This document shows positions 78-45,257 of a stretch of DNA of 59,422 nucleotides, piece after piece. The notes beneath the pieces are model-generated. The model saw only the letters and a list, made by a program, of their open reading frames with translations. It was not told the DNA's origin and made no database searches. Source of the DNA: Candidatus Thorarchaeota archaeon. Lineage in GTDB: Archaea; Asgardarchaeota; Thorarchaeia; Thorarchaeales; Thorarchaeaceae. Location of the stretch: positions 1 through 59,422 of the forward strand of contig JAEOUG010000068.1 in NCBI GenBank assembly GCA_016839445.1, in the 5' to 3' direction. Positions within the stretch are counted from its first letter, which is position 1, and the number at the start of each line of letters is the position of its first letter. The position numbers and the translations under genes are program-made.

Positions 78-746
78 TCATATGAGGGTCTCAACGCTAT
101 TCTTCCTATAGAAAGGACCGGCATGCTCCAGAGGCGCTACCATAAAGGCCTCCGCGCGGTCGGTCATGGCCTGGACACCCCGAAGTCTCGTTCTTGCATC
201 GTAGAGCTTCGCATAGAACGAACCAGCCTTTCCTGTTTGCGACCGGTGCTCGCTCAGGGCAGCCAAGGCGGAGTCATAGGTACCACTGATGTCGACCATG
301 ACATTGGGGTGCGGTAGTAACGAGTTGATCTCCATCTGATAGATGTTGTCAACGCGATGTGCGTCCTCGAACACAGTAACATGGGAAGCCCACTCAGCTG
401 CCTCCCGCACAATATCTGCACAGATTCTGTGGTTGCGATTGTAGTCAACTGGCGAATGCGTGATGATTGCTCGGGGCCGAGACTTGAGGATTGCACCGAC
501 GACTTCCTTGTTGAGGTCCATACTGACTGCGAAGTCATCTCGTTCGCTTAGGTAGAGACTACGTACCCCAAGGACGCCGCAGGCCGCCTTAAGCTCCTCA
601 TTTCGTGTTTCATTGCCTGTCATGCAGTGGACATCAACAGGGATACCCGCCTCGACATGCTTCCTGATTGTGCCTCCGGCTCCCAATGTCTCATCATCAG
701 GGTGGGCTACGACAACAAGGATCGTTCCCCTGTCACTGGTGGTCAT
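78..746 (-). CDS. bshB: PIG-L/LmbE-family deacetylase, probable GlcNAc-malate deacetylase BshB
   Basis: ILVVVAHPDDETLGAGGT motif; C-terminal VDIS..ALSEHRSQ and AEAF motifs; divergent from bshA-bshC. Start trimmed to ATG 746 (752 also possible). Confidence 0.8.
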   Translation of the reverse strand: MTTSDRGTILVVVAHPDDETLGAGGTIRKHVEAGIPVDVHCMTGNETRNEELKAACGVLGVRSLYLSERDDFAVSMDLNKEVVGAILKSRPRAIITHSPVDYNRNHRICADIVREAAEWASHVTVFEDAHRVDNIYQMEINSLLPHPNVMVDISGTYDSALAALSEHRSQTGKAGSFYAKLYDARTRLRGVQAMTDRAEAFMVAPLEHAGPFYRKNSVETLI

Positions 747-810
747 ATGCATATCAACGAGCACCGTGCTAATCAAAGTTTGGAACAGCGGCAAGCCCAG
801 ACCAAGTGGC

Positions 811-816
811 TTAAAG
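811..816 (+). promoter_or_regulatory. Candidate archaeal TATA box (TTAAAG) in the bshB/bshA divergent spacer
   Basis: TTAAAG about 35 nt upstream of the bshA GTG at 852. Confidence 0.35.
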
Positions 817-851
817 GGGATGAAGCAAGAAGCTCTGAAGAGGTCCCTTAC

Positions 852-2015
852 GTGAGGATTGGAGTCAATCTCTACCCTTCAGTCGGCGGCTCCGGGTACC
901 TAGCTACAAGACTGGGTCAACACCTTGCCGAGTTCGGACACATTGTCCACTTCATCACATACCAGCGACCCTTCTCGCTTATGTGGCAGCAGACCAAGGG
1001 AGTCTACGTTGATCTCGTCGACCGGTTCGACTACCCCCTATTCGCGGCAGTGGGGCCACCCTACACCATGGCGCTCACCTCCAAGATGGTGAAGGTCATA
1101 AACGACTCAGAGCTAGACCTCATCCACTCGCATTACGCAATCCCGCATGCGATGGCTGCCTACATGACGCGAGAGATAACTGGAACACCCTACGTTGTAA
1201 CCTTGCACGGCTCGGATGTTCACACCTTAGGTCAGGACCCAGCGTACAGACCAGTTGTAAAGCATACCGTGGAGAGGGCCAACTCTGTCACCGCAGTCTC
1301 TGAATTCTTGAAGAGGGCGGCGCAGGAAGACCTCGGTATAGAGAGAGACATACATGTCATTCCCAACTTCATTGATGTTGACAGTTTCAGGCGAATTCCA
1401 GGAGTGCGCCTGACCGTGGAAAGCGGTTGCGTGGCTCTGCGGGATGAAGAAGAGGCCCTTGAGATTAGCCCGGACGAGAAGATCCTGCTGCATGCCTCGA
1501 ACTTCAGGGGCGTGAAACGGGTTGTCCAGCTGGTTGAGGTCATGAGAGAGGTGATCAACCAACATCCACACACGCGTCTTGTGATTGCAGGTGATGGCCC
1601 GACACGAATTGAAGTAGAGAGGAAGATAGAGGAACTGGACCTCTGTAAGAACATCCATCTTCTAGGCGTGAAGAGCAACATGCAGGAAATCATGTGCTCG
1701 GCTGACGCCTTCGTCCTCAATTCGACACTTGAAGGAATGCCGCTGGTTCTGCTTGAGGCGATGTCATGTGGACTACCTGTGATTACCACTCCGGCAGGAG
1801 GGATTCCGGAGCTGGTACGAAAGGGCAAAGACGGTGCGGTCACAGAGGGATTTGAGAAGGAAGAGATGATCCGGACCATCATTGAGGTTGTGGAAGACGA
1901 GAAGTTGCGGAGGCAATATGCTACGTCCGCAAGGAAGAGGGTAGAGGAGTCTTTCTCAGTTGAGAAGATCGTTCCCATGTACGAGAAGGCGTTTGACGAG
2001 GCTCTTGGCAAGTAG
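852..2015 (+). CDS. bshA: N-acetyl-alpha-D-glucosaminyl L-malate synthase BshA (GT4)
   Basis: RIGVNLYPSVGGSG N-terminus, DLIHSHYAIPHA, VTLHGSD, HASNFRGVKRV and EGMPLVLLEAMSCG are hallmark BshA motifs. Start at GTG 852. Confidence 0.92.
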   Translation: MRIGVNLYPSVGGSGYLATRLGQHLAEFGHIVHFITYQRPFSLMWQQTKGVYVDLVDRFDYPLFAAVGPPYTMALTSKMVKVINDSELDLIHSHYAIPHAMAAYMTREITGTPYVVTLHGSDVHTLGQDPAYRPVVKHTVERANSVTAVSEFLKRAAQEDLGIERDIHVIPNFIDVDSFRRIPGVRLTVESGCVALRDEEEALEISPDEKILLHASNFRGVKRVVQLVEVMREVINQHPHTRLVIAGDGPTRIEVERKIEELDLCKNIHLLGVKSNMQEIMCSADAFVLNSTLEGMPLVLLEAMSCGLPVITTPAGGIPELVRKGKDGAVTEGFEKEEMIRTIIEVVEDEKLRRQYATSARKRVEESFSVEKIVPMYEKAFDEALGK

Positions 2016-2021
2016 AGGTTA

Positions 2022-3740
2022 TTGTCGATGACAAGCATCCACCAGGTATATCATGATTTCATCTGGAAGGCAACAGAGAGGGATCTTGCTGAGAGGCTCT
2101 ATGACACACCAATCACGACTCTGAACGGTCTCTATGAACGAGCCCCTCCGATAATTGAGGCGTACCGTGACTCCCTTTGGCACATACCCGATCGTATGAA
2201 GCTCGTGAAGCAAGAGATTACCAAGGCAAACAGCACCTTGGACTGTCTAACCTCGAAGGTAGCAGCCTCCATCGATATGCTCGAGTTCGGAGCTGTCGAA
2301 TCTGCCCATCAGGCAGTGGCGCTTGGGGGACCCGGGTACCTACTCAACAAGGCTGCAACTGCTACGAGGGTGTCGGCACTGACCTCGGAGAGGGGGGTGA
2401 GCCTGGCCGCCTTCTTCTGCGTGGCAGACTATGATGAAGTCCAGCCAGAACTCACGAACGTTCGCACACCCCTGATGGGGAGTGACGGCAATCTTGTCAG
2501 CATTCCTGTGCCTGAAGGCTATGAAAACTCACCAGTGAGCGTTCTCCCACTTCCCGAGAGAGACTGGTATCGGCAGGTCGAGGAAGACATACGTAACAAC
2601 TACCATCCCATGTTCAAGGTAGCAGATGGCCCAGCTAGGATTGTGTATGAGGAGCGTCTTGAACAGGCCCTCTCAATTGCGAGATGGGCGTTCATCAACT
2701 CTCAGACACTTGGTGAGTGGGCTCAAAGAATCCTCGCCCGCCTGTTCAATGTCGAAGGAAACCTCGGGATTCCGATAGTGCCTGCTTCGCAGCCTGGAAT
2801 AAGAGACCTCCTTGTGGAAGGTATGGAAATGCTGCTGGCCCGCCCGAACAGAGAGAGGCTTCTCCAGAGCTACGAAGAGGCCACTGCACTGATTGAGGGA
2901 AGCGGCTTTGAGCCGGGCATTGGGAATAGGAGACCTGACTATGTTCCCTTCTTCTACGAGTGTCCTGAGAAGGACTGCTTCAGAAGCAGGGTGGAACTTC
3001 ATTATGAAGAGAGAGGTACGGAGGTTTCACTTACGGGAAGATGCCCAATGTGTGGGCAGACAGTGGAAATCGAGACCTCTGCCGACAGCCCCTACTTAGC
3101 CGAGTTTGCCAGGGACATATCTCCTAGAGTAGATTCAAGGCAGCTCGTGGTGGACACGATAATTCCTGTTGTTGCTCATGTCGGTGGACCTGGAGAGACT
3201 GCCTATTATGCGCAGGTAATCCCAGGGGCAAAGGCAATTGGTGTTCCATTCCCCATGTTCATCAAATACCCAAGAGTCTACTTCAACACAGCATGGAACG
3301 AGAATCTGGGGAAGCACCTCGAGGAGAATCAGATAGAGGTCTTGCATGGCAAGGGTCTATTCAGTCTTCTGGGCAAGATTGCCAAGTTCCGAAAGAAAGA
3401 TCGGTTTGATGATATGAACAGCGCACTGGCAAGTCTGCATGATATGATTATGGAAACCCATGCCAGACTTAACGCTGAGCTCGAGGAGCGGGCGAAGACT
3501 ATTGGGGCGGCCCCCGACGATAAGGCCGAGAGCCTGAGAGGACTCAAACTCGACCTCGAGAGATATCTCAGCTGGGTATTCGGGCAGTATGCACCTGGAA
3601 AGATGGGACAGGAATCATCCTGGTCTTGGGTAGAGTATGCCATCAACTCAGGGTTTCCAGACCTCTTCGGGCCCTATCAGAGAGCCTACGTCGGTGAGAT
3701 GAAGAATGGTGCAACCTTGTTCGTCAACTTCTTCGTCTAG
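2022..3740 (+). CDS. bshC: Bacillithiol biosynthesis cysteine-adding enzyme BshC
   Basis: AVESAHQAVALGGPGYLLNKAAT (cf. VTGQQ..L.GP.Y...K), FFCVADYDEV, and VAHVGGPGETAYYAQ (cf. YVGGPGE.AY.AQ); about 570 aa with a C-terminal coiled coil; directly after bshA. Confidence 0.85.
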   Translation: MSMTSIHQVYHDFIWKATERDLAERLYDTPITTLNGLYERAPPIIEAYRDSLWHIPDRMKLVKQEITKANSTLDCLTSKVAASIDMLEFGAVESAHQAVALGGPGYLLNKAATATRVSALTSERGVSLAAFFCVADYDEVQPELTNVRTPLMGSDGNLVSIPVPEGYENSPVSVLPLPERDWYRQVEEDIRNNYHPMFKVADGPARIVYEERLEQALSIARWAFINSQTLGEWAQRILARLFNVEGNLGIPIVPASQPGIRDLLVEGMEMLLARPNRERLLQSYEEATALIEGSGFEPGIGNRRPDYVPFFYECPEKDCFRSRVELHYEERGTEVSLTGRCPMCGQTVEIETSADSPYLAEFARDISPRVDSRQLVVDTIIPVVAHVGGPGETAYYAQVIPGAKAIGVPFPMFIKYPRVYFNTAWNENLGKHLEENQIEVLHGKGLFSLLGKIAKFRKKDRFDDMNSALASLHDMIMETHARLNAELEERAKTIGAAPDDKAESLRGLKLDLERYLSWVFGQYAPGKMGQESSWSWVEYAINSGFPDLFGPYQRAYVGEMKNGATLFVNFFV

Positions 3741-5005
3741 AGTTCCTTTGACAGCAGATTCCCAAGCCTCTCGATCCCCTCAGAGATGATATCAGGTGGT
3801 GCATAGGAGAATCCGAGTCTCATTGTATTGTGCTCAGGAACACTGGGCACTACGTCGTCCTCCTCTACTGCGAGGGTATATCCCGTGATTGGATAGAAGG
3901 GTGCTCCAGGAACATACAGCAGGTCGTTCGGAATAGCCACCCGCTCCATGAACTCACCAGAGTCGAAAGACGGATCTTCGCTCTGCCACCAGATGAAGAA
4001 GCCACCAGTGGGGTCTGTTCTCTCTCCGGCGGGGAAGGAGGAGTCGATGGCCTTTGCCATAGCCTCATACCTCTTCTTGTACAGTGGTATGCCCTTCTTC
4101 ATGGCTGCGTCAATGTGCTCACGGTAATAGATATCGAGGATCCTCTGGACCAGTGTGGTCGTACAGAGGTCCAAGTAGCCCTTGTCCTTCAGCACCTGTT
4201 CACGTACCATGTCGGGCATCACAGAGTATCCTACTCGGAGTACTGCAGCCTCCTTGCTGCTGGTGCCAAGATAGGCGACACGTGTGTTCTCCTTGTCCAG
4301 AGTCTTGATGGGCTTGGGATTCTCCTTGAATTGAATCTCAGCATAAGCCGAGTCCTCAAGAAGGAGGATGTTATGATTCTCACAGATGTCGAAAAGGGCA
4401 CGCCTTCTGCTCATTGGGAGGGTGGTCCCCTTCGGATTGTCGGAATCGGGTACTACGTAGAGAAGGTCGGGGTTCTTGCCGAACTTTCTCTTAGAAATGT
4501 GAATCGCCCGTTCGACGTATTCAGGTACAATACCGTCTAGGTCTGTTGGTACAGTGAGAACGCGAGCTCCGAGCTTCACGGCTGGCACCAGGAATCCGAG
4601 ATAGGCAGGCGACGGAGTGATGATTACATCACCGGGATCAATCAACGTGTCGAGCAAGGCGTAGAGAGCTTGCTGCGAACCGTTAGTGATGGACACGCAC
4701 TCCCACTGCGACTCACAGTCGATGGGAATTCCTCGCACTTTGTGAAGTCTCTTTGCTAGGGTCTTGAGGAACCATGACTGACCTCCTGTGGGGCCGTAGT
4801 TGAGATCATCGAGAGCCATCGCTGGATCTGCAGCATACATCTCTCCAAGTTCACTCAGTATCTTAGCAAAAACATCAGTAGGCATGATACCGGGTTTGCC
4901 ACCAGCGAAGTAATACTTCACCTTGTACTTCAGGAGGGCGCGAATCTGGGACTCCTCTATGAAGGAGGTCCAAGTCGCAAAAGCATAGCCTCGTTCGTTT
5001 GCCAT
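3737..5005 (-). CDS. PLP-dependent class I/II aminotransferase (LysN/Aro8-like)
   Basis: FAGGKP, LNYGPTGG, ITNGSQQAL, DNPKGTT, LEDSAY, GTSSK (PLP lysine), MRLGFS. Confidence 0.9.
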   Translation of the reverse strand: MANERGYAFATWTSFIEESQIRALLKYKVKYYFAGGKPGIMPTDVFAKILSELGEMYAADPAMALDDLNYGPTGGQSWFLKTLAKRLHKVRGIPIDCESQWECVSITNGSQQALYALLDTLIDPGDVIITPSPAYLGFLVPAVKLGARVLTVPTDLDGIVPEYVERAIHISKRKFGKNPDLLYVVPDSDNPKGTTLPMSRRRALFDICENHNILLLEDSAYAEIQFKENPKPIKTLDKENTRVAYLGTSSKEAAVLRVGYSVMPDMVREQVLKDKGYLDLCTTTLVQRILDIYYREHIDAAMKKGIPLYKKRYEAMAKAIDSSFPAGERTDPTGGFFIWWQSEDPSFDSGEFMERVAIPNDLLYVPGAPFYPITGYTLAVEEDDVVPSVPEHNTMRLGFSYAPPDIISEGIERLGNLLSKEL

Positions 5006-5177
5006 CTTGTATCCGCAGCTCCAGGACGAGATATGGACACTTCTGTACATGACCTTGGTTGATTGTCCTTTATCTGTTTCTCAAGTTGGGTGGCTCTGGA
5101 CGCACTTCTTCTAGCTATGATGTACACAAGTGGACGTCTTGAATGCGCAAAAGGCACGGCTCTGAAAGGAGCCCAGA

Positions 5178-5972
5178 TTAGCGTGTTTCTGCGGCGATTG
5201 CCGCTGCCGCGGCTCTAGGGTCTGCAGCCTCCACGACGGATCTTGCAGCGATGACGAAGTCTGCTCCTGCATCCAGCGCTTCCCGGGCACTCCCGCCCTG
5301 AGCCCCCACACCGGGACAGAGGATTGGCACTTCTCCAGCGAGAACTTCCTTGATTTCCTGAATCTTCTCGGGTTGTGTAGCGCCAACAATGACTCCATCC
5401 ACACCCCACATCCTCGCCTTCTGAGCGAATTGCAGGTAGAGTGGCGTCGGCTTCTTCGTCTTGGGATCGGGAGTCGCGTAGAGGCCGTATCCCTCCCGAG
5501 CTCCCGGGTGAGACATGTAGCATAGGGTGATTATCCCGCGCTTCCGGTTCCTGCTCAGTTCAAGCGTGCTGTCGAGTCCTCCCTCGACGCCTACAAAGGG
5601 ATTCACGATTATTGCATCGAATCCAGCGTCGAAGTAGTATCTGGCGATTGTCTGGTTCGTGTTACCAATGTCGTTAATCTTGCAGTCCATTATGACTGTA
5701 GCTCCCTCGTCGTGAATCTTGTCGACTATGCGAGGAATGCCATCGAAAAGCCCCAGAGGGAGGACAAGGTGTCTGTTGATCTTGAACGCGACCGCGTGCT
5801 CTGCAGTCTGCGAGATGATTCGGAGTGAATCCTTCTCAAGTCGCTCCTTCTCAGCTCTCAGCACACCCGAGTCCTTGCTTGACATGTCTGCTCTCAGGTC
5901 CAATCCAACAATCAGCTTGCTCCTTCGCACGAAGCTTGCCGCAATCAGCTTTCGCTTGTACACGCAACTCAC
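5178..5972 (-). CDS. pyrF: Orotidine-5'-phosphate decarboxylase
   Basis: IVGLD, AFKIN, DCKINDIGNT (DxKxxDIxxT), VGAT, LCPGVGAQGG. Confidence 0.95.
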   Translation of the reverse strand: MSCVYKRKLIAASFVRRSKLIVGLDLRADMSSKDSGVLRAEKERLEKDSLRIISQTAEHAVAFKINRHLVLPLGLFDGIPRIVDKIHDEGATVIMDCKINDIGNTNQTIARYYFDAGFDAIIVNPFVGVEGGLDSTLELSRNRKRGIITLCYMSHPGAREGYGLYATPDPKTKKPTPLYLQFAQKARMWGVDGVIVGATQPEKIQEIKEVLAGEVPILCPGVGAQGGSAREALDAGADFVIAARSVVEAADPRAAAAAIAAETR

Positions 5973-6062
5973 TCCTCGAAACTGAACCCCGTGTTCCCGT
6001 TTCGTGCCACCTTCACACTACCAGCCAAATAAACTCTCGTTACGCCTCAATTCAGTGTAAAC

Positions 6063-6068
6063 TTATAT
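6063..6068 (+). promoter_or_regulatory. Candidate TATA box (TTATAT)
   Basis: AAACTTATAT about 35 nt upstream of TTG 6104 in the divergent spacer with pyrF. Confidence 0.4.
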
Positions 6069-6103
6069 CCGGCTTGACTCTGAGTCTGCGTGGAGAGGAA
6101 GAA

Positions 6104-7147
6104 TTGAGCCCCGATTGGATCATGACCAGACTGGCGGTAGTCCTCTTAGCTATCGTAGGGCCAATCTACTTCTTCCTCCTCATGCTTTTCGTGCCATTCT
6201 ATCTCCAACCCTTCGCAGACCCTCTTCTGAACACGTTCTTCCACTTCGTTGCCACACCAGTTGTGTTCTCAGCACCATGGATCGGATGGATATACTACAA
6301 GCGCTACAGGTTGGCGAACATGGTGCACATAATGGACGAGACCATAACGGCTGTGCCCCTTCGGTGGCGCGTGTTCTATGGAGCCAATGCCGCTTTCATC
6401 ATTGCGCTGTTCATTCTCCCAATGATCACTCCAATCTTGGCAATCATCGGGGGATTGGTTGTCGCAGGGCATGTCTTCTACAGAATCGGGATTGGGAAGC
6501 TTGGAGGTGGGAAGGCGGCTGCGTTCCTAGGTTTCTTCGTGGCTCTTGGTCTCTGCATTCTCCCTGCGCTCGTAATGATCGAGTTCATTCCTGGATATCT
6601 TCCTCTCTGGGAGAGAGTGCTTGCATCTTGGAACGACTTCTGGCTTGATGTTGTGTACGGCTTCGCGCAGTGCCTTGTGAACGCGCTGTCCTTTGGGGCT
6701 CCTGTCTACTTTATCTACTATGGAGCCCAGCAGTACGACAGAGGTCTCTATGGGGAAGTCTACACTAAGACGCCAACTCGCTGGATACGAGTTGCAGAAC
6801 TGCTGATCTTCGTCATCTTTCTAGTGATGTACCTACCCCCAATACCTACCACTCTTGGAGTAATTCCATTCTTGGACTTGTCGTTCCTGTTTACAGACTA
6901 CATCAACTGGATCTCCTTAGGCATTGTCGCCATCATGACTCTCATCAAGATGCGCCTAGGGGTAAAGGAGGATACGACGATGGGAGGATTCTCCAACATC
7001 CTCGTGATAGGTCTGTTTCTCGTTGTCGAGCTCTTCTTCAAGACCAATCTGCTTCTAATCACGGTAATCATCTGGCTCGCCTTCCTGATATACGGAGGCC
7101 TGGCTGCTGTCAGCTACTTCCGAGCATCGCCGGGTGAGATGTACTGA
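6104..7147 (+). CDS. Uncharacterised multi-pass membrane protein (~10 TM)
   Basis: Hydrophobic ORF; start at TTG 6104 or ATG 6122 (the upstream part of the track ORF overlaps pyrF). Confidence 0.75.
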   Translation: MSPDWIMTRLAVVLLAIVGPIYFFLLMLFVPFYLQPFADPLLNTFFHFVATPVVFSAPWIGWIYYKRYRLANMVHIMDETITAVPLRWRVFYGANAAFIIALFILPMITPILAIIGGLVVAGHVFYRIGIGKLGGGKAAAFLGFFVALGLCILPALVMIEFIPGYLPLWERVLASWNDFWLDVVYGFAQCLVNALSFGAPVYFIYYGAQQYDRGLYGEVYTKTPTRWIRVAELLIFVIFLVMYLPPIPTTLGVIPFLDLSFLFTDYINWISLGIVAIMTLIKMRLGVKEDTTMGGFSNILVIGLFLVVELFFKTNLLLITVIIWLAFLIYGGLAAVSYFRASPGEMY

Positions 7148-7270
7148 GGAAGCAGACTCAGCTGTCTTGCGGTAGTCAGTTCTACAGGTTTTTCGACCGG
7201 ATGCTGGAGTTTATGAGAGAAGCAGTGCGATATCTCCCAGCCGGAAGCACTCAAAGAGAAGTGAGATCCT

Positions 7271-9028
7271 ATGCGCAAGAGGTACATCGTCCTCATCGTT
7301 CTACTGGTGACTCTCTCGACCACTCTCTCTGTAGGGTGGTATGCTCGACGAGCGTATGGGGAGATTACCATAGAGAAGTATGACATCGTTCGCGGCAACG
7401 GGAGGGTAGTAAGCTTCAGGGTATACGCTCCGTCAGTCAACACCTATGGACAACCAAGACCAACAGTCTTGACGATTCACGGTATATCTGGGTCAGGAGC
7501 CATGATGGACCCCTTCAACATAGAACTAGCTAGGAGAAACTTCACAGTTGTTTCAGTGGATCTCACGGGGCATGGACGATCATCAGAAACCTTCGGATTC
7601 GATGCGTTCTTTGAAGCAGTCAACGACGCCTTTGAGGCAGTCAGGTATGTGCAGTTGAATGACCCCGAAACTCATGATACCATTTACGGAGTACTTGGTC
7701 ACTCTCTTGGAGCCGGGATTTCACTCTTCTTCGAAAACGTCAGCATACTACCTCAGAGCACTGTCATAATTGGAGGAGGTATGGGGGACCAGTTCGGAGG
7801 ACTAGAGCCTCCTATCAACGAGACCAGACCAAGAAACCTCCTTCTGGCGAGCGGAATCTTTGATGAGCTTGTTAGCCCTCAGACCGCCCTTAATACACTT
7901 CAGCAAGCCACCGGAGTCGCCTCGCCGAGTGCCGGCGTGACTTATGGCAACTTCACCGATGGAACGGCCCGTAGACTAGTCTTCAGTTTCACCAACCATC
8001 TCTTCGAAACATCAGACGCAAGAATCGTCACACAGTCAATAGATTGGCTAGTGCGAGCTCTTCAAGGAGAGGCTCAGAGAGAGGATGCAACTCTGAATCC
8101 TCAGCTTCATGTTTACCAGACGGTGGCTGTTCTTGATCTCATAGGAGCAGTGTCTTATGTGCTTAGTATGCTCCCCATTGTTCTAATCTCATACTCCCTC
8201 ATACCCAGGCATTTGCTACCACAGAGAATAGAGAAGTTCACAGAAGAACTTGACAAGAAACGAGGTATGAGATACAGCCTCTTTGTAGGCCTCTCAACGG
8301 CTCTACTCTTCCTTGTCGTTCTACTGATGGGATTCGGCTTCGAGTTCGGAGGCCTCATAGTCATTCCTATTTCGTTCGGTACTGGTTTGGTGGTCTACTC
8401 AATCGCATCGACGCTGTTTGTCTTCAGACTGTCTCGACGATACATTGACAATGAGAGCATCAGGTTGCTCACACCTGAGCTTCGGGATAAGAACACACGT
8501 GGCAGGCTGGACGAGCTGATCCGTGTAGGCATTGCGCTTGTACCTGCCTTCTCATGGATTCTTCTATGGTCTGCCATATCAAGATTGGGCCTTGATGTGG
8601 CTCCACCCTTCACATTCGCAATGGACAGTGGAGCAGCCATCCTCAGATTCGGATACTTCGTAGCATTGGTCTTTCTTCTTGTCCCTCTCTTCTACTCAGA
8701 TGCTCTCTGGCTGAACGCAACTACTGGCATTGTGAAGCCTTGGAGGGAAATCGGAGAGATGCTTGGGAGACTCGGGAGAGCGATGCTTAGCAGGTTGCTC
8801 GGGCTCGTCATCTTGATTGCAGCACTATACATCCCGTTTCTGATAGGAGCCCAGCTAGGCTTCATTATGTTCATTGCCCTTCTGATGCTGCCCTTCACAG
8901 TGATATTCGCCCTCACCACTCTCGTGACTGTGTGGGTAGGTGCAATAACAAGGAGCAACCTGACGGCGGCTTTCCTCAACTCAATCCTACTAGCTCTCGT
9001 GTTGGCAAGCACATTCCAGATCCTATGA
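7271..9028 (+). CDS. Membrane-anchored alpha/beta hydrolase with C-terminal multi-TM domain
   Basis: N-terminal signal/anchor, TIHGISG, DLTGHGRS, GHSLG nucleophile elbow, GIFDELV (Asp), TNHLFE (His), then ~8 TM helices. Confidence 0.85.
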   Translation: MRKRYIVLIVLLVTLSTTLSVGWYARRAYGEITIEKYDIVRGNGRVVSFRVYAPSVNTYGQPRPTVLTIHGISGSGAMMDPFNIELARRNFTVVSVDLTGHGRSSETFGFDAFFEAVNDAFEAVRYVQLNDPETHDTIYGVLGHSLGAGISLFFENVSILPQSTVIIGGGMGDQFGGLEPPINETRPRNLLLASGIFDELVSPQTALNTLQQATGVASPSAGVTYGNFTDGTARRLVFSFTNHLFETSDARIVTQSIDWLVRALQGEAQREDATLNPQLHVYQTVAVLDLIGAVSYVLSMLPIVLISYSLIPRHLLPQRIEKFTEELDKKRGMRYSLFVGLSTALLFLVVLLMGFGFEFGGLIVIPISFGTGLVVYSIASTLFVFRLSRRYIDNESIRLLTPELRDKNTRGRLDELIRVGIALVPAFSWILLWSAISRLGLDVAPPFTFAMDSGAAILRFGYFVALVFLLVPLFYSDALWLNATTGIVKPWREIGEMLGRLGRAMLSRLLGLVILIAALYIPFLIGAQLGFIMFIALLMLPFTVIFALTTLVTVWVGAITRSNLTAAFLNSILLALVLASTFQIL

Positions 9029-9063
9029 TTTCGAGGACTGCTGCAACTCAGAGTACGTGTAGG

Positions 9064-9426
9064 TTACTTGAGGTTCAAGACCTCCAAAGGTTCAGCCAGC
9101 CTGATGATGGGAAGATATGCGGTCATGGGCTCGGAGTCTGCCAGAGAGCTAACGAACTCAACGCTTTCCTTTGGCCTAGACCTGTAGGCGAGGTAGTTGC
9201 CCTTCGGAGGACCATCACCAACTATGTGAACCCAGAGGGGAAGTCCATACTTGTCGTAGTAGCCATGGTTTGAGATTAGCGTCCCGTAGTAGTGCTTGCC
9301 GCCATGCTCGAAGTAGAGCATGCTGGCGGGTCGGTCTCTCTGAGACCACGAAACAAGCATTCTGGCCATATCGAGCATAGACTCAAGTCTGAGATTCACG
9401 GGAGGAGGGATGTCAATCTTGCTCAT
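9064..9426 (-). CDS. Small hypothetical archaeal protein
   Basis: Clean ~120-aa ORF with a TATA-like CTTATAAG at 9463-9470 upstream; resembles small conserved archaeal proteins of unknown function. Confidence 0.7.
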   Translation of the reverse strand: MSKIDIPPPVNLRLESMLDMARMLVSWSQRDRPASMLYFEHGGKHYYGTLISNHGYYDKYGLPLWVHIVGDGPPKGNYLAYRSRPKESVEFVSSLADSEPMTAYLPIIRLAEPLEVLNLK

Positions 9427-13511: not shown

Positions 13512-15821
13512 TTGAGCAAGACACAGAAAAAGGCTCCAGAAGAGGACTCAGGGGTTGACGTTTACACAAGTAGTCTCTTCGAGCTCAACCTGAAAGTGCA
13601 GGACGCGGTAAGTGAGTTCGCGCTGCATGACATTGATGACGAAGAGGGCATCGAGCAGAAACGGCTCAATATGCACGACAGGTTCACAGAGCTATACTCG
13701 GAGATAGCCGAATTCAGCGAGCAGATTATGGTGTCAGACTTCGAGATCTCATACCTTAGGAGCAGATTGGCCCAAGCCGAGGGGGAGACCAAGACACAGC
13801 TTGAAGCAGCCCTCGAAGACCTTATGGCTCGCTCCCAGGCTAACTACGCAGACATATGGATGGCAAAGGTGATGGCGTGGCTCCATCAAGCAGCAGGCGC
13901 CAGTGGGCCATTCAATGAAGAGGAACACGAGGACAAGAAGAAGAGCGCATCAAAATACTTGGCCGCCGTCTACACCATGCTCGAGAGACCCTTCTCTGCC
14001 GTACCTCAAAAAGTGGATGGTACCCAGAAGCTACGCAGAGTGGCCCTAGGACTCCAATCGTATCGACTCATGGAGGAGTCAGCGGAGGGCGACGAGGACG
14101 ACCTGGCAATCATCTTGGGAAAGAACAAGAGTGCGGAGGCAGAGTTCTACGACGAGTTTCTCAATGAGCTGATTGGTCAGGAGAGCACATTCAGGCAGGC
14201 GTTCAATCCATTTGATGAGTTGGTCTGGAGGGACATTCTTAGCTCGTTCATCTTTGAGCAGGCAACAGATCTGTACAACGAGGCGATTCCACATTTCAAG
14301 AAGAAACGCGAGTTCAAGGACCGCCTTGATGCCATCAAGTCCTGGAAGAACAACACGGCAGGTCTGAGTGAGGTCTACTCTGCAATGACCTACAACGACA
14401 TTGCAGACACACAGATGCGAGCGGGAAATCTGGAGGATGCGTCCAAGCTCTATAGCGTCGCATCGGATGCCTTCGGCCGGGCAGAGAAGTGCTTCAGAGA
14501 GGTTCTGGCCCTCCAGTCAAACGCAGACCAGTCCAGTATTGACAAGGAACAGAAAAAGGCACAGTCACTCTTCTGTCATGCTGAGGCAAGTGTTCAGACC
14601 CTCATTGACCTCATCACTGTCAACAATCGAACTGAGGCCATCAAGGCGCTAAAGGAGATATTCAAGGATCTGAAGAAAGCAGAGAGTCTTGCGAAGACTC
14701 GAGAACTCACCAGCGCCATAAAGGAGGACTTGAAGACATACACGTTTGTAGAGGACCTCCTGAAGAAGACTAAGGATGACATCAGCGGAATCATAGACCA
14801 GATTGCCTTCGCTAAGGATCTGAGGAAGACTGGGCTAATACAGGATGTGAGCAAGTCGCTGGACACGGCCACTTCACAGCTCAGCAGGAACCCAGCGGAC
14901 TCTCTGGATTCTCTCAGGGAAGGCCTTGACAGCCTCGGGATTCTTCTGAGCTTGGAAGCGGAAGATAGCGAAGTGGGAGAGCTCAGGAACCGGACTCTTG
15001 CTCTACTCAATCATGTCAAATACATGATTCAGTTCCAGCTGAGTTCTCAACTGCAACATGGTGGCAAGTTCATTCTCTCAAGGATTCTCGAGAATCTGTC
15101 CGCTGCTGAGGCGGCATCCTACTACAAAGTGATTGGGCAGGACGAGACAGCCATGGAACTCACAGACCTTGGGAAGCTCGCCTTGGCCACAGCCTTCGCA
15201 TCAGAAGCTCAAGTATACTCACGCCAGTCCGATCAATGGGCTTTCCGTGCACAGGTTGAGAGGCTGAACGCCTTTAGAAACATGGAAGATGAGCTAAGCC
15301 TCTTAGACGAGGACGGCCCTATTGACGAGGCCCTCAAAACACATGACAATGCGATTTCCAGGATCAACCAAGCCATGGTTTCCTTTGAGGCTGCAGCTAA
15401 CGAGTTAGACAGCGTGAAGGGAGAAGAGATCAGGCAAAAGAACAGCGTCGACTTGCAGGTCAAGCAGCTTCAGGGAGTGGTCATGAAGTTCAGAGGCGAC
15501 CTATCGAGGATGAAGGGAGCCAAGAGCGATTTCATTGCAGAGTTCATGTTCAGAACAGGCGACAACACGAAGGCGAAGCGACATTACTCTGACGCCAATG
15601 ATAGCCTTAGAGAAGCTGTGGGAAACTACAATGTAGCTGCGCAGGTCTTCCAGCAGGTGGGTGATGCACAGTCTGCACAGAATGTAGACGGGAGAGCAAA
15701 GGCTGCAGATCTCTTGGCCAGAGGAGTATGGGATAGCCGACAGAGGCTGGAGAGGGATCAGGCGCCCAGCATGAAGGGAGAACCCGAGTTGGCTGCGCTC
15801 TATCTGGGCCTAACCGGCTAG
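13512..15821 (+). CDS. Large all-alpha (TPR/SNAP-like solenoid) hypothetical protein
   Basis: 769 aa, A/E/L/K rich, TPR-like segments (AGNLEDASKLYSVASDAFGRAEKCF; AKRHYSDANDSLREAVGNYNVAAQVF). Confidence 0.75.
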   Translation: MSKTQKKAPEEDSGVDVYTSSLFELNLKVQDAVSEFALHDIDDEEGIEQKRLNMHDRFTELYSEIAEFSEQIMVSDFEISYLRSRLAQAEGETKTQLEAALEDLMARSQANYADIWMAKVMAWLHQAAGASGPFNEEEHEDKKKSASKYLAAVYTMLERPFSAVPQKVDGTQKLRRVALGLQSYRLMEESAEGDEDDLAIILGKNKSAEAEFYDEFLNELIGQESTFRQAFNPFDELVWRDILSSFIFEQATDLYNEAIPHFKKKREFKDRLDAIKSWKNNTAGLSEVYSAMTYNDIADTQMRAGNLEDASKLYSVASDAFGRAEKCFREVLALQSNADQSSIDKEQKKAQSLFCHAEASVQTLIDLITVNNRTEAIKALKEIFKDLKKAESLAKTRELTSAIKEDLKTYTFVEDLLKKTKDDISGIIDQIAFAKDLRKTGLIQDVSKSLDTATSQLSRNPADSLDSLREGLDSLGILLSLEAEDSEVGELRNRTLALLNHVKYMIQFQLSSQLQHGGKFILSRILENLSAAEAASYYKVIGQDETAMELTDLGKLALATAFASEAQVYSRQSDQWAFRAQVERLNAFRNMEDELSLLDEDGPIDEALKTHDNAISRINQAMVSFEAAANELDSVKGEEIRQKNSVDLQVKQLQGVVMKFRGDLSRMKGAKSDFIAEFMFRTGDNTKAKRHYSDANDSLREAVGNYNVAAQVFQQVGDAQSAQNVDGRAKAADLLARGVWDSRQRLERDQAPSMKGEPELAALYLGLTG

Positions 15822-15830
15822 TGGGTCATA

Positions 15831-18011
15831 TCACCCAGCCGTGGGTACATTCGATGCAAGTGCCTCTACTAGGGCCGGTTTCGTATGAATCCGCTTCAAA
15901 GCGTACGGCCGGAATTCAACTCCTCCAGCGTGATAGAATTTCGAGAACCACTCCACGAAGTGAAGACGCAACGTATGCATGAATGCGAGCAGGCCTTCGA
16001 GAATGCCCACAATCAGCGACCCAATGATGGCACCAAGTAAGGGAAGGTAGGGTGCCACAAGGTGGCCATCATGCCATATCTGATGAGGGATTATCTCCAC
16101 CCCAAAGAGCTCCAGTGGAGGAATAGGAATCTCCACAATGGCGGGAAGCAGGCTGATGAAGACTCCGCTAAGAATGATGTGAACGGTGTTCAGTGCGAAG
16201 ATACGCGCATAGCTTACAGTGTGGCTAATCATGCCAATAGAGTACTCAAGAAACTCGACAACTCCATCCATTCCGGATAGGAAGGAGGATATGGCCATCA
16301 GAACCATGGGCAGGATGAACACCATAGTCGAGAAGACTAGAGGGGCGATGGGAAGCGTAGGATAGACTCCATTGTCGCCTATTCCGTAGCCGATTCCTGC
16401 GATCGGGACCCACAGATTCACGCTCCCTGTTGCATTGAACCAGCTGTTGACATTGCTGTAGCTGACGCCAAAGATGAGATTGATGAAACCGTAGTATAGC
16501 CAGAGATAGCTGCCGGCCACGACGGCCTCTTTGTAGTCCCTATGCTTCAGCTTGTTGTACAGATTCAGGATGATACCCAACATGATGTGGAGTGCACCCA
16601 CTTCAACAGAGAGCTTCAGCATGTGTGCAGAGCGGAAAACGTTCTCATGCCCAAACTCGTCAGTGTGAGAGAACACAGGCCAGAGTGGCTCTATGACGGT
16701 CTCTGCTCCAAAGAAGCTGCCAAACAAGAATCCCCCGAGGATGGCAAAGACGCCCATCAGAATCAGGCCCTCTGCGCCGGCCTGAAGGTAGCCCATAATG
16801 GCACCCCACTCCTGCCCCTTGTTCCGCGCCCTCCGGGCGGCGAGCCCGATTAGGAGGATTAGGAAGCCCTGCCCTACATCTGCGAAGACGAGCCCGAATA
16901 TCAGAGGGAATGAAAGCCACATCAGCTTGGTAGGATCCAGGTCATGTTTGGAGGGAATCCCGAAGGCCTTCACCACATTCTCTGTGGGCTTCATCACAGA
17001 GGGATTCGATATGTAAGTGGGAGCCTCATGCTCAGCGAAGTCAGGCCGGTCAAATGTGACTTCAAGAGCTCTTCCCACCCTTTGCTGAAGAATGGTCTCA
17101 AGCCGTTCTTCCTTTCCCTCAGGAATCCAGCCCCACATCTTGATTGCCTGGTCGGTGTAGACTATGTAGCTCTTGACCTCGATTCTCTTCTCTTCGATCT
17201 CTATCGCTTCGAGAGCGGCAAGTATCTGTGTTCCCCATTCGTTCGAGATGTGAGACTTCTCCGACTGAATGCGACCAATCTCGTTCTGGAGTTCCTGCAT
17301 CCGTTCCTCAGTCTCTGCGGCAATCTTCTCGGGTGGGCCTTGAGAGTCGGGAGGAATTGAGAAGGCCTCGAATTCCAGTGCTGAAAGGATGCGCTCGATT
17401 GCATCCTTCAACTCCACAGGCACTGTCAGGACTGCTGCGCTGACGCCCCTCTTGAGTCGGAGAAGGCTGAGAGTGAACGAGCCATCTGTCACTTCTCTAA
17501 GGCTCCACTCGAGCTCATCATCTCTTCCAGAGGGAACTATTCCCGCGGTTGTATACGTGTATTCTGTGCTGCGAATGAGTGCCGGGTCGACACCAAGAGG
17601 CTTGAGGGAGACAGCCACATCGCGGATTCCTCTCTGGCGCTCCAGCTCAGCTCTTGCGCTTATGAGCTTGGACTCAAGGTCAAGAACCTGGGATTCTACA
17701 GCCTTAACAACAGAAGACACGAATTTCAGAGGATCTTCGATGGTGGTATCGTCAACCTCAACAGCAAGGCCTCTCCTCTTAGTCGGGTCGATCTCAAGAA
17801 TGTCCAGGATCTTCACAATCCGGTCCTTAACGACAAGAACGGTCTCCTCTTCTCGAGAGCGCCTGACATCAGGTATGCCAGCCTGTCTTCGAACATCGAT
17901 GAACTCGAAGTAGCCGAATTCCTCAAGGGCCTGCTTGACTTGGCGCTCAAGGTCCCGATGAGATACGACCTTGGCTACAATCATCCTCTGAGGACTCATC
18001 TGAAGACCCAT
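15831..18011 (-). CDS. atpI: A/V-type ATP synthase subunit I (a)
   Basis: Soluble N-terminal half; WGWIP, APTY, DPT, FGLVFADVGQG, SHTVSYARIFAL (essential Arg), HTLRLHFVEWFSKFY. Confidence 0.95.
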   Translation of the reverse strand: MGLQMSPQRMIVAKVVSHRDLERQVKQALEEFGYFEFIDVRRQAGIPDVRRSREEETVLVVKDRIVKILDILEIDPTKRRGLAVEVDDTTIEDPLKFVSSVVKAVESQVLDLESKLISARAELERQRGIRDVAVSLKPLGVDPALIRSTEYTYTTAGIVPSGRDDELEWSLREVTDGSFTLSLLRLKRGVSAAVLTVPVELKDAIERILSALEFEAFSIPPDSQGPPEKIAAETEERMQELQNEIGRIQSEKSHISNEWGTQILAALEAIEIEEKRIEVKSYIVYTDQAIKMWGWIPEGKEERLETILQQRVGRALEVTFDRPDFAEHEAPTYISNPSVMKPTENVVKAFGIPSKHDLDPTKLMWLSFPLIFGLVFADVGQGFLILLIGLAARRARNKGQEWGAIMGYLQAGAEGLILMGVFAILGGFLFGSFFGAETVIEPLWPVFSHTDEFGHENVFRSAHMLKLSVEVGALHIMLGIILNLYNKLKHRDYKEAVVAGSYLWLYYGFINLIFGVSYSNVNSWFNATGSVNLWVPIAGIGYGIGDNGVYPTLPIAPLVFSTMVFILPMVLMAISSFLSGMDGVVEFLEYSIGMISHTVSYARIFALNTVHIILSGVFISLLPAIVEIPIPPLELFGVEIIPHQIWHDGHLVAPYLPLLGAIIGSLIVGILEGLLAFMHTLRLHFVEWFSKFYHAGGVEFRPYALKRIHTKPALVEALASNVPTAG

Positions 18012-18176
18012 ACTGGTATCACCCATCCGGTCCTGACAGCAAGCAGCCTCACAGCACAGCAGAACCGTGTCGATGCCGCCTCGCATCTGACAGGACAAAT
18101 AACTCTTGCGACAGGTGAACGTTTATCAGGAACATGATTAGGAATCCTGCTCACTCTTCACCCCGAGGTGGTTCAC

Positions 18177-18500
18177 GTGTGCGCAGCGCAGGAAGAGATG
18201 GATCAAATCAGCGAGGCTGAAAAGGCGGCTCGAAACAGAATAGAAGAGGCCCAAAGGAGAGCGAAGACCATTCGTGAGGAGGCAGACAAGGAAGCCAGAG
18301 CGCTGATTGCTAAGGCTGAGAGTGATGCCAAGAAGGACGCCTCGAAGATGACATCAGAGATAGAGAAAGAGAGAGCCCGCGTCGAGTCGGAGATTCTAGA
18401 GGACACAGATGAGAAGATCAAGTCCCTGAAGAACTTGTCCTCCAAGAGGAAGAAGGCGGCCTTCATGGTCGCTTACAAGATGATAGTAAGGGAGGCATGA
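18177..18500 (+). CDS. atpH: A/V-type ATP synthase peripheral stalk subunit H/G
   Basis: ISEAEKAARNRIEEAQRRAKTIREEA right-handed coiled-coil pattern; adjacent to subunit E; GAGGTG SD before GTG 18177. Confidence 0.8.
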   Translation: MCAAQEEMDQISEAEKAARNRIEEAQRRAKTIREEADKEARALIAKAESDAKKDASKMTSEIEKERARVESEILEDTDEKIKSLKNLSSKRKKAAFMVAYKMIVREA

Positions 18501-19132
18501 ACGGGATGAGTGGAATCTCCAACATCATCGAGATGATCAACAAGAAGACCGATGAGAAGGAAGACGAGATTATTGCCGAGGCGGAACGTCACAAGCGAAT
18601 CAAGGTCGAGGAAGCAGAGAAGAGAGCGAAAGAGGCCGCCAGTAACATAATCAAGAAGGCTGAGCGAGACACGCACGCAGAGATGGCGAGGTACAAGGCC
18701 ACTGCTATGTTGAAGGCGAAGTACAAGCTGCTCGATGCCAAGGAGGAGATGATCAACTTGGTCCTTGGCGAAGTGAGAAAGGAACTGGAGAGCCTATCGG
18801 AGAAGAGCGAGTACAGCCAGGTACTCAATCGACTGGTTGTTGATGCGGGGGTCACACTGAGCGAGGAAGACCTCGAGATTGTCCTGCCAAAGGGGCACAA
18901 GAAGCATCTTGATCTAGAAGACATTCAGAAGCAAATCGCCAAGCAGACCAAGAAGAAGGTGAAGCTCAGCATATCAAAGGACAACGTGCGCTCCATTGGG
19001 GGTGCCCTCGTGAGAAACTCAGATGGATCGAAGTGGGTTGACAACACCTTTGAGGCGCAGATTGAGCGGTTGACCAGTGAACTGAGAGACAGTGTGGCGT
19101 CTGTGCTATTTGCAGAAGAGAAAGACAAGTAG
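18497..19132 (+). CDS. atpE: A/V-type ATP synthase subunit E
   Basis: N-terminal coiled coil; C-terminal SIGGALVRNSDG..VDNTFEAQIERL motif. Start could be 18506. Confidence 0.92.
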   Translation: MNGMSGISNIIEMINKKTDEKEDEIIAEAERHKRIKVEEAEKRAKEAASNIIKKAERDTHAEMARYKATAMLKAKYKLLDAKEEMINLVLGEVRKELESLSEKSEYSQVLNRLVVDAGVTLSEEDLEIVLPKGHKKHLDLEDIQKQIAKQTKKKVKLSISKDNVRSIGGALVRNSDGSKWVDNTFEAQIERLTSELRDSVASVLFAEEKDK

Positions 19133-19161
19133 AGGATTGTGACCTCTACTCTCCGTTCTTA

Positions 19162-19566
19162 CTAACCCCCGATTACAGCGGGGATGTAACCAATAAGAAG
19201 GAAAGCAATGACGAAGCCGTATATGGCCACGGCCTCAATGAACACAACGTAGAGAATGCTCTTTCCGAAGGTTTCAGGCTTCTCTGTTATTGCTCCCAAG
19301 GCAGCAGCTGAGGCTGTACCCATTCCCAAGCTTGCACCAAGTCCAGCCAAGCCAAGTGCCAGGCCGGCTCCCAAGGCCAAACCCAAGACACCGATTCCAG
19401 CACCTTCAATTGCCTGCATTGCGACAAAGACGCGGCCACCACTCAGGGCCACGGCATCCAAGGTGGCAGAGTATGCTCCTGATATGGTTAGAAATAGGGT
19501 AAGTGAGGCAATGAATGCACTCAGTGTAGAGAGCGCAAGACCTAGGTTTCGAACATCCATTTTCAT
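19162..19566 (-). CDS. atpK: A/V-type ATP synthase proteolipid subunit K (c), single hairpin plus extra N-terminal hydrophobic helix
   Basis: GAGLALGLAGLGASLGMG, GAITEKPETFGK, FIEAVAIYG (ion-carrying Glu). Confidence 0.95.
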   Translation of the reverse strand: MKMDVRNLGLALSTLSAFIASLTLFLTISGAYSATLDAVALSGGRVFVAMQAIEGAGIGVLGLALGAGLALGLAGLGASLGMGTASAAALGAITEKPETFGKSILYVVFIEAVAIYGFVIAFLLIGYIPAVIGG

Positions 19567-19651
19567 CAAGAGTTGTCCTCCGGCTGCCGGATTCCGACAT
19601 CTCTCCACTAATAACATTGTCCCTTAGGACGTGAGAGGACCGAGGATCATA

Positions 19652-20713
19652 TCACCAGAGCACAATCATTCTCCTAATGACCTCAGCAGGCTCCCCTCGT
19701 TCAACGCCCACGGCAATCGAGCGGAGGTTCCTTACCTCGTACTGCTTAAGGCTGAAGAAACCGATTATGGTACCTAGATGAAAGGGGAAAGCTGTGAGCT
19801 GCCTCTTCACCTTCTGTGCAATGTAGTCTTCGATGGCAAGCTCGACGCTCGTGAGATCCTCCGTTTCCTCAAACATGCGGGATAGCCGACCTGCAAGGGT
19901 CCCGTATTTCGTGCCCTCTAAGGCAGTGAACACATCTCTCCAAGTCGTTGCCGAGGAGATCTTAGAGGTAATGCTCTCAGTGTGTGGAAATCGGATAAGT
20001 GAGAGCTCAAGAGCCCGGGGTTCGACATGGAGTAGTGCCGCCCTAAGTCCAGTGAGCGTGTTTCGTAGAACCACGCGAGGCTCTACAATGCTTACCACCC
20101 GGTCAACTTCGGATGTTGAGAAACCCTCTAGGCTAGCCATCAGCTTCTTGAGATGCCACTCTTCGACGGCAACTTCCAGGGGTGCAGTCGAATCGTACTG
20201 CTCGTACGTAGGAAAACGAGTAAGAAGAGAGACCTTCAGGTCCCATTGCGGAAGTCTGTCAACCATCTTGCTCACAGACCCGGTCGCTACAAGCTCTGAG
20301 AACAGAGCTTCGTCCGCAGGCGAGGTTGGCATTGAAAATCTGAGTATCTCAGCATCATCTAGACCCACATGTAGTCCACGTATGATTGTCTTGATGCTCT
20401 CAGAGTAGAAGAACTCAAGATAGGTCTGAGCGAAGTTCTGAACCCTTCCAGTCAGCGTCCTGGAGAGGTTCGAGCTTATGTCCGCGAAGTCATTGGACAG
20501 GATAAGTGCGAGCTCGTCGGGGCTGGGTATTGCGCCAGGCGCCGATCTTGACATTACAGAACCGTAATAGGTACCAGAGAGCGTTTTGATGAACTCGTCG
20601 TAGTTGGAGGATTGCAGAAGGCTTTCGTAGACTCCCACTGTCAGGAATCGAGACTTCATTCCTCGAATCCTTGCATTGACAAAGCCGTACTCATTCGCAG
20701 CCCGCAGATCCAT
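19652..20713 (-). CDS. atpC: A/V-type ATP synthase subunit C (d)
   Basis: YGFVNARIRGMKSRFL N-terminus; GFFSLKQYEVRNLRSIAVG C-terminus. Confidence 0.93.
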   Translation of the reverse strand: MDLRAANEYGFVNARIRGMKSRFLTVGVYESLLQSSNYDEFIKTLSGTYYGSVMSRSAPGAIPSPDELALILSNDFADISSNLSRTLTGRVQNFAQTYLEFFYSESIKTIIRGLHVGLDDAEILRFSMPTSPADEALFSELVATGSVSKMVDRLPQWDLKVSLLTRFPTYEQYDSTAPLEVAVEEWHLKKLMASLEGFSTSEVDRVVSIVEPRVVLRNTLTGLRAALLHVEPRALELSLIRFPHTESITSKISSATTWRDVFTALEGTKYGTLAGRLSRMFEETEDLTSVELAIEDYIAQKVKRQLTAFPFHLGTIIGFFSLKQYEVRNLRSIAVGVERGEPAEVIRRMIVLW

Positions 20714-21762: not shown

Positions 21763-21867
21763 GAGTCTTCTTGCGTTCGGTACTGAATATCCGTTTTGGT
21801 GCGACAGGAATGCACCTTGGTCAATGTTTTTGTTGCGGTTGGACACACAGGAAACGAGGCACAGTGT

Positions 21868-26632: not shown

Positions 26633-26637
26633 ACCAT

Positions 26638-28191: not shown

Positions 28192-28195
28192 CCTC

Positions 28196-42684: not shown

Positions 42685-42752
42685 TGGCCTGGCCGCTTGA
42701 CTATGGACCCGTACCCTTTTCTTGGCGAGAATGCAAGCAGAGTCGACACACA

Positions 42753-44048: not shown

Positions 44049-44077
44049 CTGAAGATGGAACCCATTGGTGACAGGCC

Positions 44078-45235: not shown

Positions 45236-45257
45236 TTGAGAAGGAGGGCCTAGGCCA

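Follow-up and report, generated by a model that had tools for sequence, protein, structure and literature searches.

In a cell, redox and detoxification chemistry depends on low-molecular-weight thiols. For one of them, the protective sugar-cysteine thiol bacillithiol, the closest described enzymes are bacterial, BshA, BshB1/BshB2 and BshC of Bacillus subtilis, Bacillus anthracis and Staphylococcus aureus (structures 5d00, 3mbo, 2ixd, 6p2t and 4wbd). Described here is a locus with the same three enzyme families in one place, bshB<>bshA-bshC, at positions 78-3740 of a stretch of 59,422 nucleotides (nt) from a Candidatus Thorarchaeota archaeon (contig JAEOUG010000068.1), called the window below. 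It resembles the bacterial system in a BshA that exceeds the equivalog cut-off, in the fold and residues of BshC and in the zinc ligands of BshB. The source genome is 2.9 Mb long and 89.8% complete with 6.45% estimated contamination, and all absences from the genome reported here carry that scope. With some reservation, the locus is probably native to Thorarchaeota, inherited vertically, and a cluster for a low-molecular-weight thiol of the bacillithiol type.

Archaeal bsh genes have been noticed before. A 2020 review gives 39 archaeal InterPro matches each for BshA and BshC, mostly Asgard (Rawat & Maupin-Furlow 2020, PMC7278568), and at NCBI many of these proteins already bear the name 'bacillithiol biosynthesis BshC'. 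A 2025 paper, which searched RefSeq with strict BLAST criteria, reports that the pathway was found in no archaea (PMC12719100). When bacillithiol was combined with Heimdall-, Loki- or Bathyarchaeota names, no paper with 'bacillithiol' appeared in the literature searched, and in two further papers that contain 'bacillithiol' together with 'Asgard' or 'Thorarchaeota' the words stand in separate contexts. The idea of archaeal bacillithiol genes, put forward in the initial annotation of the window, is thus already in print and in database annotation, and what the window holds is an archaeal form, native to its lineage, of a pathway described before. It is set apart by a BshC clade with a cysteine hairpin, an altered motif in BshB, and recycling enzymes that were not found in the genome.

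Families and structures of the three enzymes

The BshA protein scored 368.4 bits on TIGR03999, over the equivalog cut-off of 273.7, with the next family at 142.9 bits. Its nearest solved structures are the BshA enzymes of B. anthracis, B. subtilis and S. aureus at 208-247 bits, including 247 bits to 3mbo and 236 bits to the B. subtilis enzyme 5d00. The protein has the two-domain GT-B architecture of glycosyltransferase family 4 (GT4), with PF13439 and PF00534, and the E-x7-E motif, regarded as a GT4 hallmark, is present as EGMPLVLLE at residues 294-302.

The BshC protein matched PF10079 (Rossmann-like_BshC) over residues 33-414 with 55.7 bits, above the gathering score of 27. A search with the single sequence reached the B. 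subtilis structure 4wbd at E 2e-4 only, compared with E 3.3e-23 for a profile of 36 relatives (alignment A1). The AlphaFold2 model built on A1 (predicted local distance difference test score 95.0, predicted template modelling score 0.93) was superposed on 4wbd with Z 34.0 and a root-mean-square deviation of 2.9 Å over 471 of 540 residues at 17% identity, and Foldseek matched the model to B. subtilis BshC with E 6.7e-19. Eleven residues (Q95, G101, K108, D136, E141, R321, G387, E390, Y393, Q528 and E529) show 97-100% conservation among 70 representatives of classical BshC and 90-100% among 29 representatives of the clade to which the window protein belongs, and all eleven are kept in the window BshC. 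Judged by its sequence and model, this protein is a true but divergent member of the family.

The clade emerged from a search of 1.84 billion representatives, which gave 456 matches at E <= 1e-3 with a marked gap in score: 47 matches were found at E <= 1e-30, and the next full-length ones only at about 64 bits. The 99 full-length representatives were split at this gap, hence by E-value rank, into the 29 clade and the 70 classical sequences, and in an unrooted FastTree of all 99 a branch with support 100 separates the clade members from the rest. Thirteen of the 27 clade clusters looked up (out of 29) carried an organism name and all thirteen were archaeal, 12 of them Asgard (the names being Thor-, Heimdall-, Hod-, Kari-, Odin-, Ran- and Hermodarchaeota, Promethearchaeota and Harpocratesius) and one Bathyarchaeota. 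As to vertical spread or recent horizontal transfer, for which phylogenies had been proposed, recent transfer is unlikely for BshC, which falls in an archaea-only clade far from bacterial BshC, so far as an unrooted tree can tell.

Members of the clade are marked by cysteines in a hairpin region (residues 304-350), with at least four in 20 of the 29 representatives, three in eight and two in one; the motif was found in 0/70 classical representatives. In the clade C312 and C339 are invariant and C342 is 97% conserved; in A1 the first two are likewise invariant and C342 almost so. Since R321 sits between the two cysteine pairs, the hairpin could act as a structural scaffold for a catalytic or substrate-binding Arg, and it is probably a structural zinc site that would hold Arg321 in place. 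Among 15 of the 35 papers on 'BshC' and 'zinc', no zinc-binding BshC was seen in the titles and abstract openings.

The third protein, a PIG-L/LmbE-type deacetylase, matched PF02585 with 74.8 bits (cut-off 28.2). Among solved structures it comes closest to 2ixd and to 6p2t, the BshB of S. aureus, and archaeal diacetylchitobiose deacetylases score almost equally. The zinc ligands of PIG-L/BshB enzymes are named as His12, Asp15 and His113 in PMC5790435; H17, D20 and H108 of the window protein align with these residues of 2ixd, and all three are kept. The genome also carries a second, unlinked PIG-L gene (contig C18, 27033-27644, minus strand; L032:1639-2175), with 52-53 bits on BshB1, an intact H-Q-D-H and an HMM (hidden Markov model) match that reads through one TAG. 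It adjoins a hexapeptide-repeat (acyltransferase-like) gene and is probably a sugar-modification gene, though it could be an alternative deacetylase.

Layout of the locus and its spacer

The open reading frames (ORFs) at 78-794 (-), 627-2015 (+) and 2022-3740 (+) place bshB divergent from bshA, with bshC behind bshA on the same strand (Table 1). For bshB a start at ATG 752 or 746 is likely because homologues start just ahead of the conserved ILVVVAHPDD, and for bshA GTG 852 is likely because homologues start there (MRIGVNLYP) and GAGGT (840-844) lies 8 nt upstream. By these starts the bshB/bshA spacer is 99-105 nt long and the bshA-bshC gap 12 nt, in agreement with the earlier description of three adjacent bsh-type genes sharing a divergent spacer of about 105 nt. 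In the genome, tblastn found one copy only of each gene.

Table 1. Features of the bsh locus in window coordinates
Feature	Position	Strand	Remarks
bshB-like PIG-L/LmbE N-deacetylase, 224 amino acids (aa)	78..752	-	likely start ATG 752; alternatives ATG 746, TTG 794; full frame 238 aa
bshA, GT4 N-acetylglucosaminyl-L-malate synthase type, 387 aa	852..2015	+	likely start GTG 852
bshC, archaeal Cys-hairpin type, 570 aa	2028..3740	+	ATG 2028; length as in matching database protein
N105-R-N107-H108 of BshB, at the position of the family H-x-D-H	429..440	-	alignment of 8 genus members
AHPDDE motif of BshB with zinc ligands H17 and D20	690..707	-	aligned to His12/Asp15 of 2ixd
Divergent intergenic spacer	753..851	.	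8 genomes share two conserved blocks
Cys-rich hairpin of BshC (C312, C317 ... C339, C342) around R321; putative zinc ribbon	2961..3056	+	clade alignment

When the spacer of the window was aligned with those of seven same-genus loci, two blocks proved to be conserved in the eight genomes. Block 1 (CTAATCAAAGTTTGG, 769-783) lies 17-31 nt before the bshB start, and block 2 (798-817) ends in the TATA-like CTTAAAGG (810-817), positioned 35-42 nt before the bshA start. As putative promoter elements, the two blocks fit divergent archaeal promoters with short or absent leaders. RNA cover of the locus consists of one 266-nt contig from a marine-sediment metatranscriptome, identical to the window at 3499-3764; it spans the 3' ends of bshC and of the convergent aminotransferase gene, and its strand could not be assigned. 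Near-identical copies of the locus were found in DNA runs labelled marine sediment, estuary and mangrove.

Archaeal origin of the cluster and its distribution

The gene order bshB<>bshA-bshC, followed by a convergent aminotransferase gene, pyrF and a membrane protein gene, was kept in all seven same-genus loci with wide flanks, at identities of 65-70% for BshB, 71-76% for BshA and 60-62% for BshC. BshC relatives (E <= 0.001) were present in 23 of the 24 other genomes of the genus; 20 of these were near full length with 58-63% identity, and the rest were fragments. The closest named record to the locus is a 70.5-kb contig labelled 'MAG: Candidatus Thorarchaeota archaeon'. Elsewhere the window encodes A/V-type ATPase subunits, GCD14, HerA-like and Mrp-like proteins and glycolytic and glycosylation genes, and its guanine-cytosine content is even at 0.49-0.55. 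No tRNA and no Rfam family was found in the window, and there is therefore no sign of a mobile element. The archaeal setting seen by the initial annotation, and the taxonomy of the contig that it wanted checked, are borne out by the same-genus synteny, the Thorarchaeota-named record, the archaeal neighbours and the even base composition, and by these comparisons the bsh cluster is native to Thorarchaeota.

The linkage of the deacetylase gene extends beyond the genus. A PIG-L gene adjoins bshA, divergently, in a genome of the Asgard family f12, and adjoins bshC in a Bathyarchaeota contig (L012). Families are labelled here as in a survey of 400 Asgard genomes, in which f1 (85 genomes) is the family of the window. 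BshA and PF10079 exceeded their cut-offs in 146 and 156 of the 400 genomes, respectively, with the same pattern among families: BshA/BshC were counted in 76/75 of 85 genomes in f1, 30/30 of 31 in f5, 16/17 of 19 in f12, 12/11 of 12 in f14, 3/3 of 3 in f17 and 11/11 of 12 in f20. In the same survey BshA was not found in f9 (0/135), f18 (0/22) or f26 (0/14). Weak PF10079 matches (E 1e-4 to 1e-10) were seen in genomes of these families without BshA, namely in 5/135, 11/22 and 5/14, respectively.

A cluster of another kind was met in f20, where a 362-kb contig of one genome carries the three genes as a collinear operon, bshC-bshB-bshA (L033, G117:C41:338000-352000; ORFs 5709-9139, minus strand). 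All three proteins of this operon exceed the NCBIfam equivalog cut-offs (379.9, 228.1 and 413.3 bits), its BshC has no Cys hairpin in the alignment, and identity to the window proteins is 35% for BshA, 25% for BshB and 20% for BshC. The two loci thus have the same pathway genes in the same phylum, but the f20 operon is of the bacterial type whereas that of the window is of the archaeal type. Given the canonical f20 cluster and the divergent window-type cluster, there are two kinds of cluster in Asgard archaea, which suggests that the pathway has had two separate histories in the phylum and argues against a single recent import of the archaeal kind.

Partner enzymes

Bdr, which acts with bacillithiol in the bacterial system, was over its cut-off in nine of the 400 Asgard genomes: six of 12 in f14, where a seventh lies below the cut-off, two of 31 in f5 and one of three in f22. 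One f14 genome with Bdr (G039) carries a four-Cys BshC, a weak sign that the thiol made by the archaeal pathway would be compatible with Bdr. In the source genome three proteins were found of DinB_2, the superfamily to which bacillithiol S-transferases belong. No match to a gamma-Glu-Cys ligase was convincing, GCS2 giving only a marginal, partial match of 22 bits. The flavoproteins include a CoADR-like one under its cut-off (339.9 vs 578.8 bits) and a TrxR-like one. Haem-copper oxidase, cytochrome bd and Fe/Mn superoxide dismutase (SOD) were not found in the genome, and the organism is apparently anaerobic.

Neighbouring genes

The class I/II aminotransferase gene at 3737-5050 (-) converges on bshC, the two stop codons overlapping by 4 nt. 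Its product met no NCBIfam cut-off, the best score being 117.6 bits on a MocR-like PdxR model. It is followed by pyrF (orotidine monophosphate decarboxylase) at 5178-5972 (-). This arrangement is kept in same-genus genomes (75-81% identity) and not in the f12, f5 or f14 loci. On the other side, the window contig stops soon after bshB, before the point at which relatives have a conserved protein of 128-135 aa without a family match just past bshB and, two genes past bshB, an archaeal phosphoglucosamine mutase, GlmM (TIGR03990, 513.8 bits). The GlmM score is that of the copy at L021:2827-4221 (+), the only one scanned, and L022-L025, L029 and L030 have equivalents of this ORF. GlmM supplies the synthesis of uridine diphosphate N-acetylglucosamine (UDP-GlcNAc).

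Further into the window, A/V-type ATPase subunits I, E and C (15831-20713) and three antiporter subunits of the Mrp/complex-I type (25067-30211) lie on either side of a LarA-like lactate racemase (21796-23151) and an FGGY sugar kinase (23148-24668). A surface-glycan cluster at 42681-58853 contains a UDP-GlcNAc 2-epimerase, several GT4 enzymes, a Wzx-like flippase, a DegT-type aminotransferase and NAD-dependent epimerases, and upstream of it are a UDP-glucose dehydrogenase (37212-38555) and another epimerase (31232-32176). Three long ORFs have no Pfam match at E <= 1e-5: 13512-15821 (+, 769 aa), 45258-46466 (+, 402 aa) and 48021-50345 (-, 774 aa).

Discussion

The proposal of a bacillithiol-type thiol is built on gene identity, synteny, fold and residue conservation, from which we infer the chemistry of each step and the product. 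BshA would join UDP-GlcNAc to L-malate, the PIG-L enzyme would take off the acetyl group, and the BshC-type enzyme would put cysteine on the free amine to give cysteinyl-glucosamine-malate (Cys-GlcN-malate) or a close analogue. This BshC would stand for an old archaeal branch of its family. Such a thiol would more likely serve in the buffering of electrophiles, metals or sulfide, or in the protection of iron-sulfur centres or protein thiols, than in oxygen defence, and it would be recycled by something other than Bdr/Brx. We favour this because BshA is over the equivalog cut-off with BshA enzymes as its nearest structures, because the fold of BshC matches B. subtilis BshC with the eleven family residues kept, and because the gene order holds in seven of seven loci with PIG-L linkage also in f12 and Bathyarchaeota. 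It is favoured further because BshA and BshC share their family pattern across the 400 Asgard genomes, because Bdr occurs in half of the f14 genomes, one of them with a four-Cys BshC, because the genome has DinB_2 proteins and no convincing gamma-Glu-Cys ligase, and because relatives carry GlmM, and with it a supply of UDP-GlcNAc, near bshB. The wording of the initial annotation, 'bacillithiol or a variant', has the right degree of caution for the gene families present.

Several points weigh against this proposal. The use of L-malate as acceptor by BshA is a prediction based on the family score. BshB stays under both of its equivalog cut-offs (TIGR04001, 75.5 vs 182.5 bits; TIGR04000, 58.3 vs 195.25 bits), and BshC, with 55.1 bits on TIGR03998, is far under the 265.8 required. 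Of the 'complete bacillithiol pathway' first described, the set of three adjacent genes is thus real, but the HMM comparison that was to confirm it places only BshA at equivalog level, the divergent BshB and BshC passing Pfam models only. In BshB, moreover, all eight genus members have N-x-N-H (N105-R-N107-H108 in the window) where the family has H-x-D-H, and the first His and the Asp of H-x-D-H serve in acid-base catalysis according to studies of MshB. H-x-D-H is retained in the aligned f12 Asgard, Bathyarchaeota and canonical f20 proteins. The window BshB is clearly under selection, and it may be active as a deacetylase. Neither a BshB with N-x-N-H nor a BshC clade with a cysteine hairpin was found described in the literature searched, the scope of which left out subscription journals and supplements.

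The published record and the partner enzymes add to these points. According to PMC5790435, the catalytic residues of BshB 'await identification' and nobody has yet reconstituted the reaction of BshC in vitro, that of the bacterial enzyme included, so that 'adds cysteine' rests on genetics in Bacillus. Bacillithiol has been demonstrated in no archaeon (PMC7278568). In the source genome no Bdr/YpdA was found over the cut-off (TIGR04018, best 73.5 vs 339.9 bits), neither BrxA/B nor BrxC was detected (TIGR04191 and TIGR04019, no match), and Bdr was over its cut-off in 0/85 f1 genomes. The search for partners proposed at the outset therefore failed for brxA/B and ypdA/bdr and succeeded for the superfamily of bacillithiol S-transferases, with its three members. 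The further suggestion of a redox buffer bearing on oxygen tolerance gained no support, with no Bdr, Brx, terminal oxidase or Fe/Mn SOD detected in the genome. The sole RNA evidence, overlapping as it does the convergent gene, is a weak hint of expression and could be DNA carry-over.

Some of these features could be explained by a cluster that makes a different glucosamine conjugate, with another acceptor acid or another amino acid, for use as a solute, cofactor or metal ligand. This explanation is doubtful but deserves to be kept in view: a BshC 17-20% identical to the classical enzymes and bearing a clade-specific Cys hairpin, the altered motif of BshB and the failure to find Bdr or Brx partners in the genome would all agree with it, but BshA exceeds a curated equivalog cut-off for a malate-specific enzyme, every residue invariant across classical BshC is kept, and Bdr co-occurs with a four-Cys BshC in f14. 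It is very improbable that the GT4 and PIG-L genes serve glycan or glycolipid synthesis by the logic of GPI-type (glycosylphosphatidylinositol) anchors, GlcNAc transfer followed by de-N-acetylation, next to an unrelated BshC-like gene. PIG-L deacetylases and GT4 transferases are common in envelope glycosylation, a large glycosylation cluster is present in the window at 42.6-58 kb, and BshB scores nearly the same on archaeal diacetylchitobiose deacetylases as on S. aureus BshB. That cluster is, however, about 40 kb distant. The GT4 protein reaches 368 bits with the BshA model and only 143 with that of the next family, and BshA and BshC, whose family-level distribution in 400 genomes is the same, lie side by side in all loci that were inspected.

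That the contig is a bacterial contaminant of the bin, or a recent bacterial transfer, might be suspected from the estimated contamination of the genome and from the fact that bacillithiol is known only from bacteria. This is effectively refuted by the synteny conserved within the genus, where the flanking aminotransferase, pyrF and membrane protein genes recur in 7/7 loci and the 70.5-kb record is itself named Thorarchaeota, by the archaeal BshC clade, in which 13 of 13 named clusters are archaeal, and by the even base composition.

The proposal of a native cluster for a bacillithiol-type thiol can be extended to a bolder one, which as a whole we consider unlikely. Asgard archaea and Bathyarchaeia would make a bacillithiol-type thiol with a deep BshC branch of their own, in which the four-Cys hairpin would be a metal site that holds Arg321 and helps to recognise or activate the cysteine donor; the pathway would be old in archaea, not a bacterial import, and would serve anaerobic sulfide, metal or electrophile chemistry. 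Zinc acts on the cysteine substrate in cysteinyl-tRNA synthetase (CysRS) and in MshC. With bsh genes in about 150 of the 400 sampled Asgard genomes, a direct measurement of thiols would close a genuine gap. The clade of archaeal BshC proteins may, in addition, help with the puzzle of the BshC reaction that has resisted reconstitution and, if the reading is true, would offer a new system for attempting it. A link to oxygen tolerance and the origin of eukaryotes is weak, as no oxidases or Fe/Mn SOD were found in the genome and the largest family surveyed, f9 (135 genomes), is without BshA matches.

Comparison with known systems

From the bacterial bacillithiol system the window differs in a BshC only 17% identical to 4wbd and equipped with a Cys hairpin, in the N-R-N-H of BshB, in the order bshB<>bshA-bshC and in a genome without detected Bdr, BrxA/B or BrxC; the archaeal product is predicted from genes. 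With the mycothiol enzymes MshA-MshB-MshC of Actinobacteria it shares the logic of GlcNAc transfer by a GT4 enzyme, deacetylation of the LmbE type and ligation of cysteine by an enzyme resembling class I aminoacyl-tRNA synthetases. The window proteins reach only 63.4 and 24.4 bits on the MshA and MshB HMMs, and MshC (3c8z, 8hfm) appears only among the weak Foldseek matches of the BshC model (E about 0.01-0.08). The second-best structural match of that model is a class I lysyl-tRNA synthetase, 1irx_A (Z 21.3 over 301 residues), to which the A1 profile gave no match at the sequence level. The glutamyl- and methionyl-tRNA synthetases and CysRS follow at Z 10-13, and a Rossmann-type catalytic core is common to them and the BshC model.

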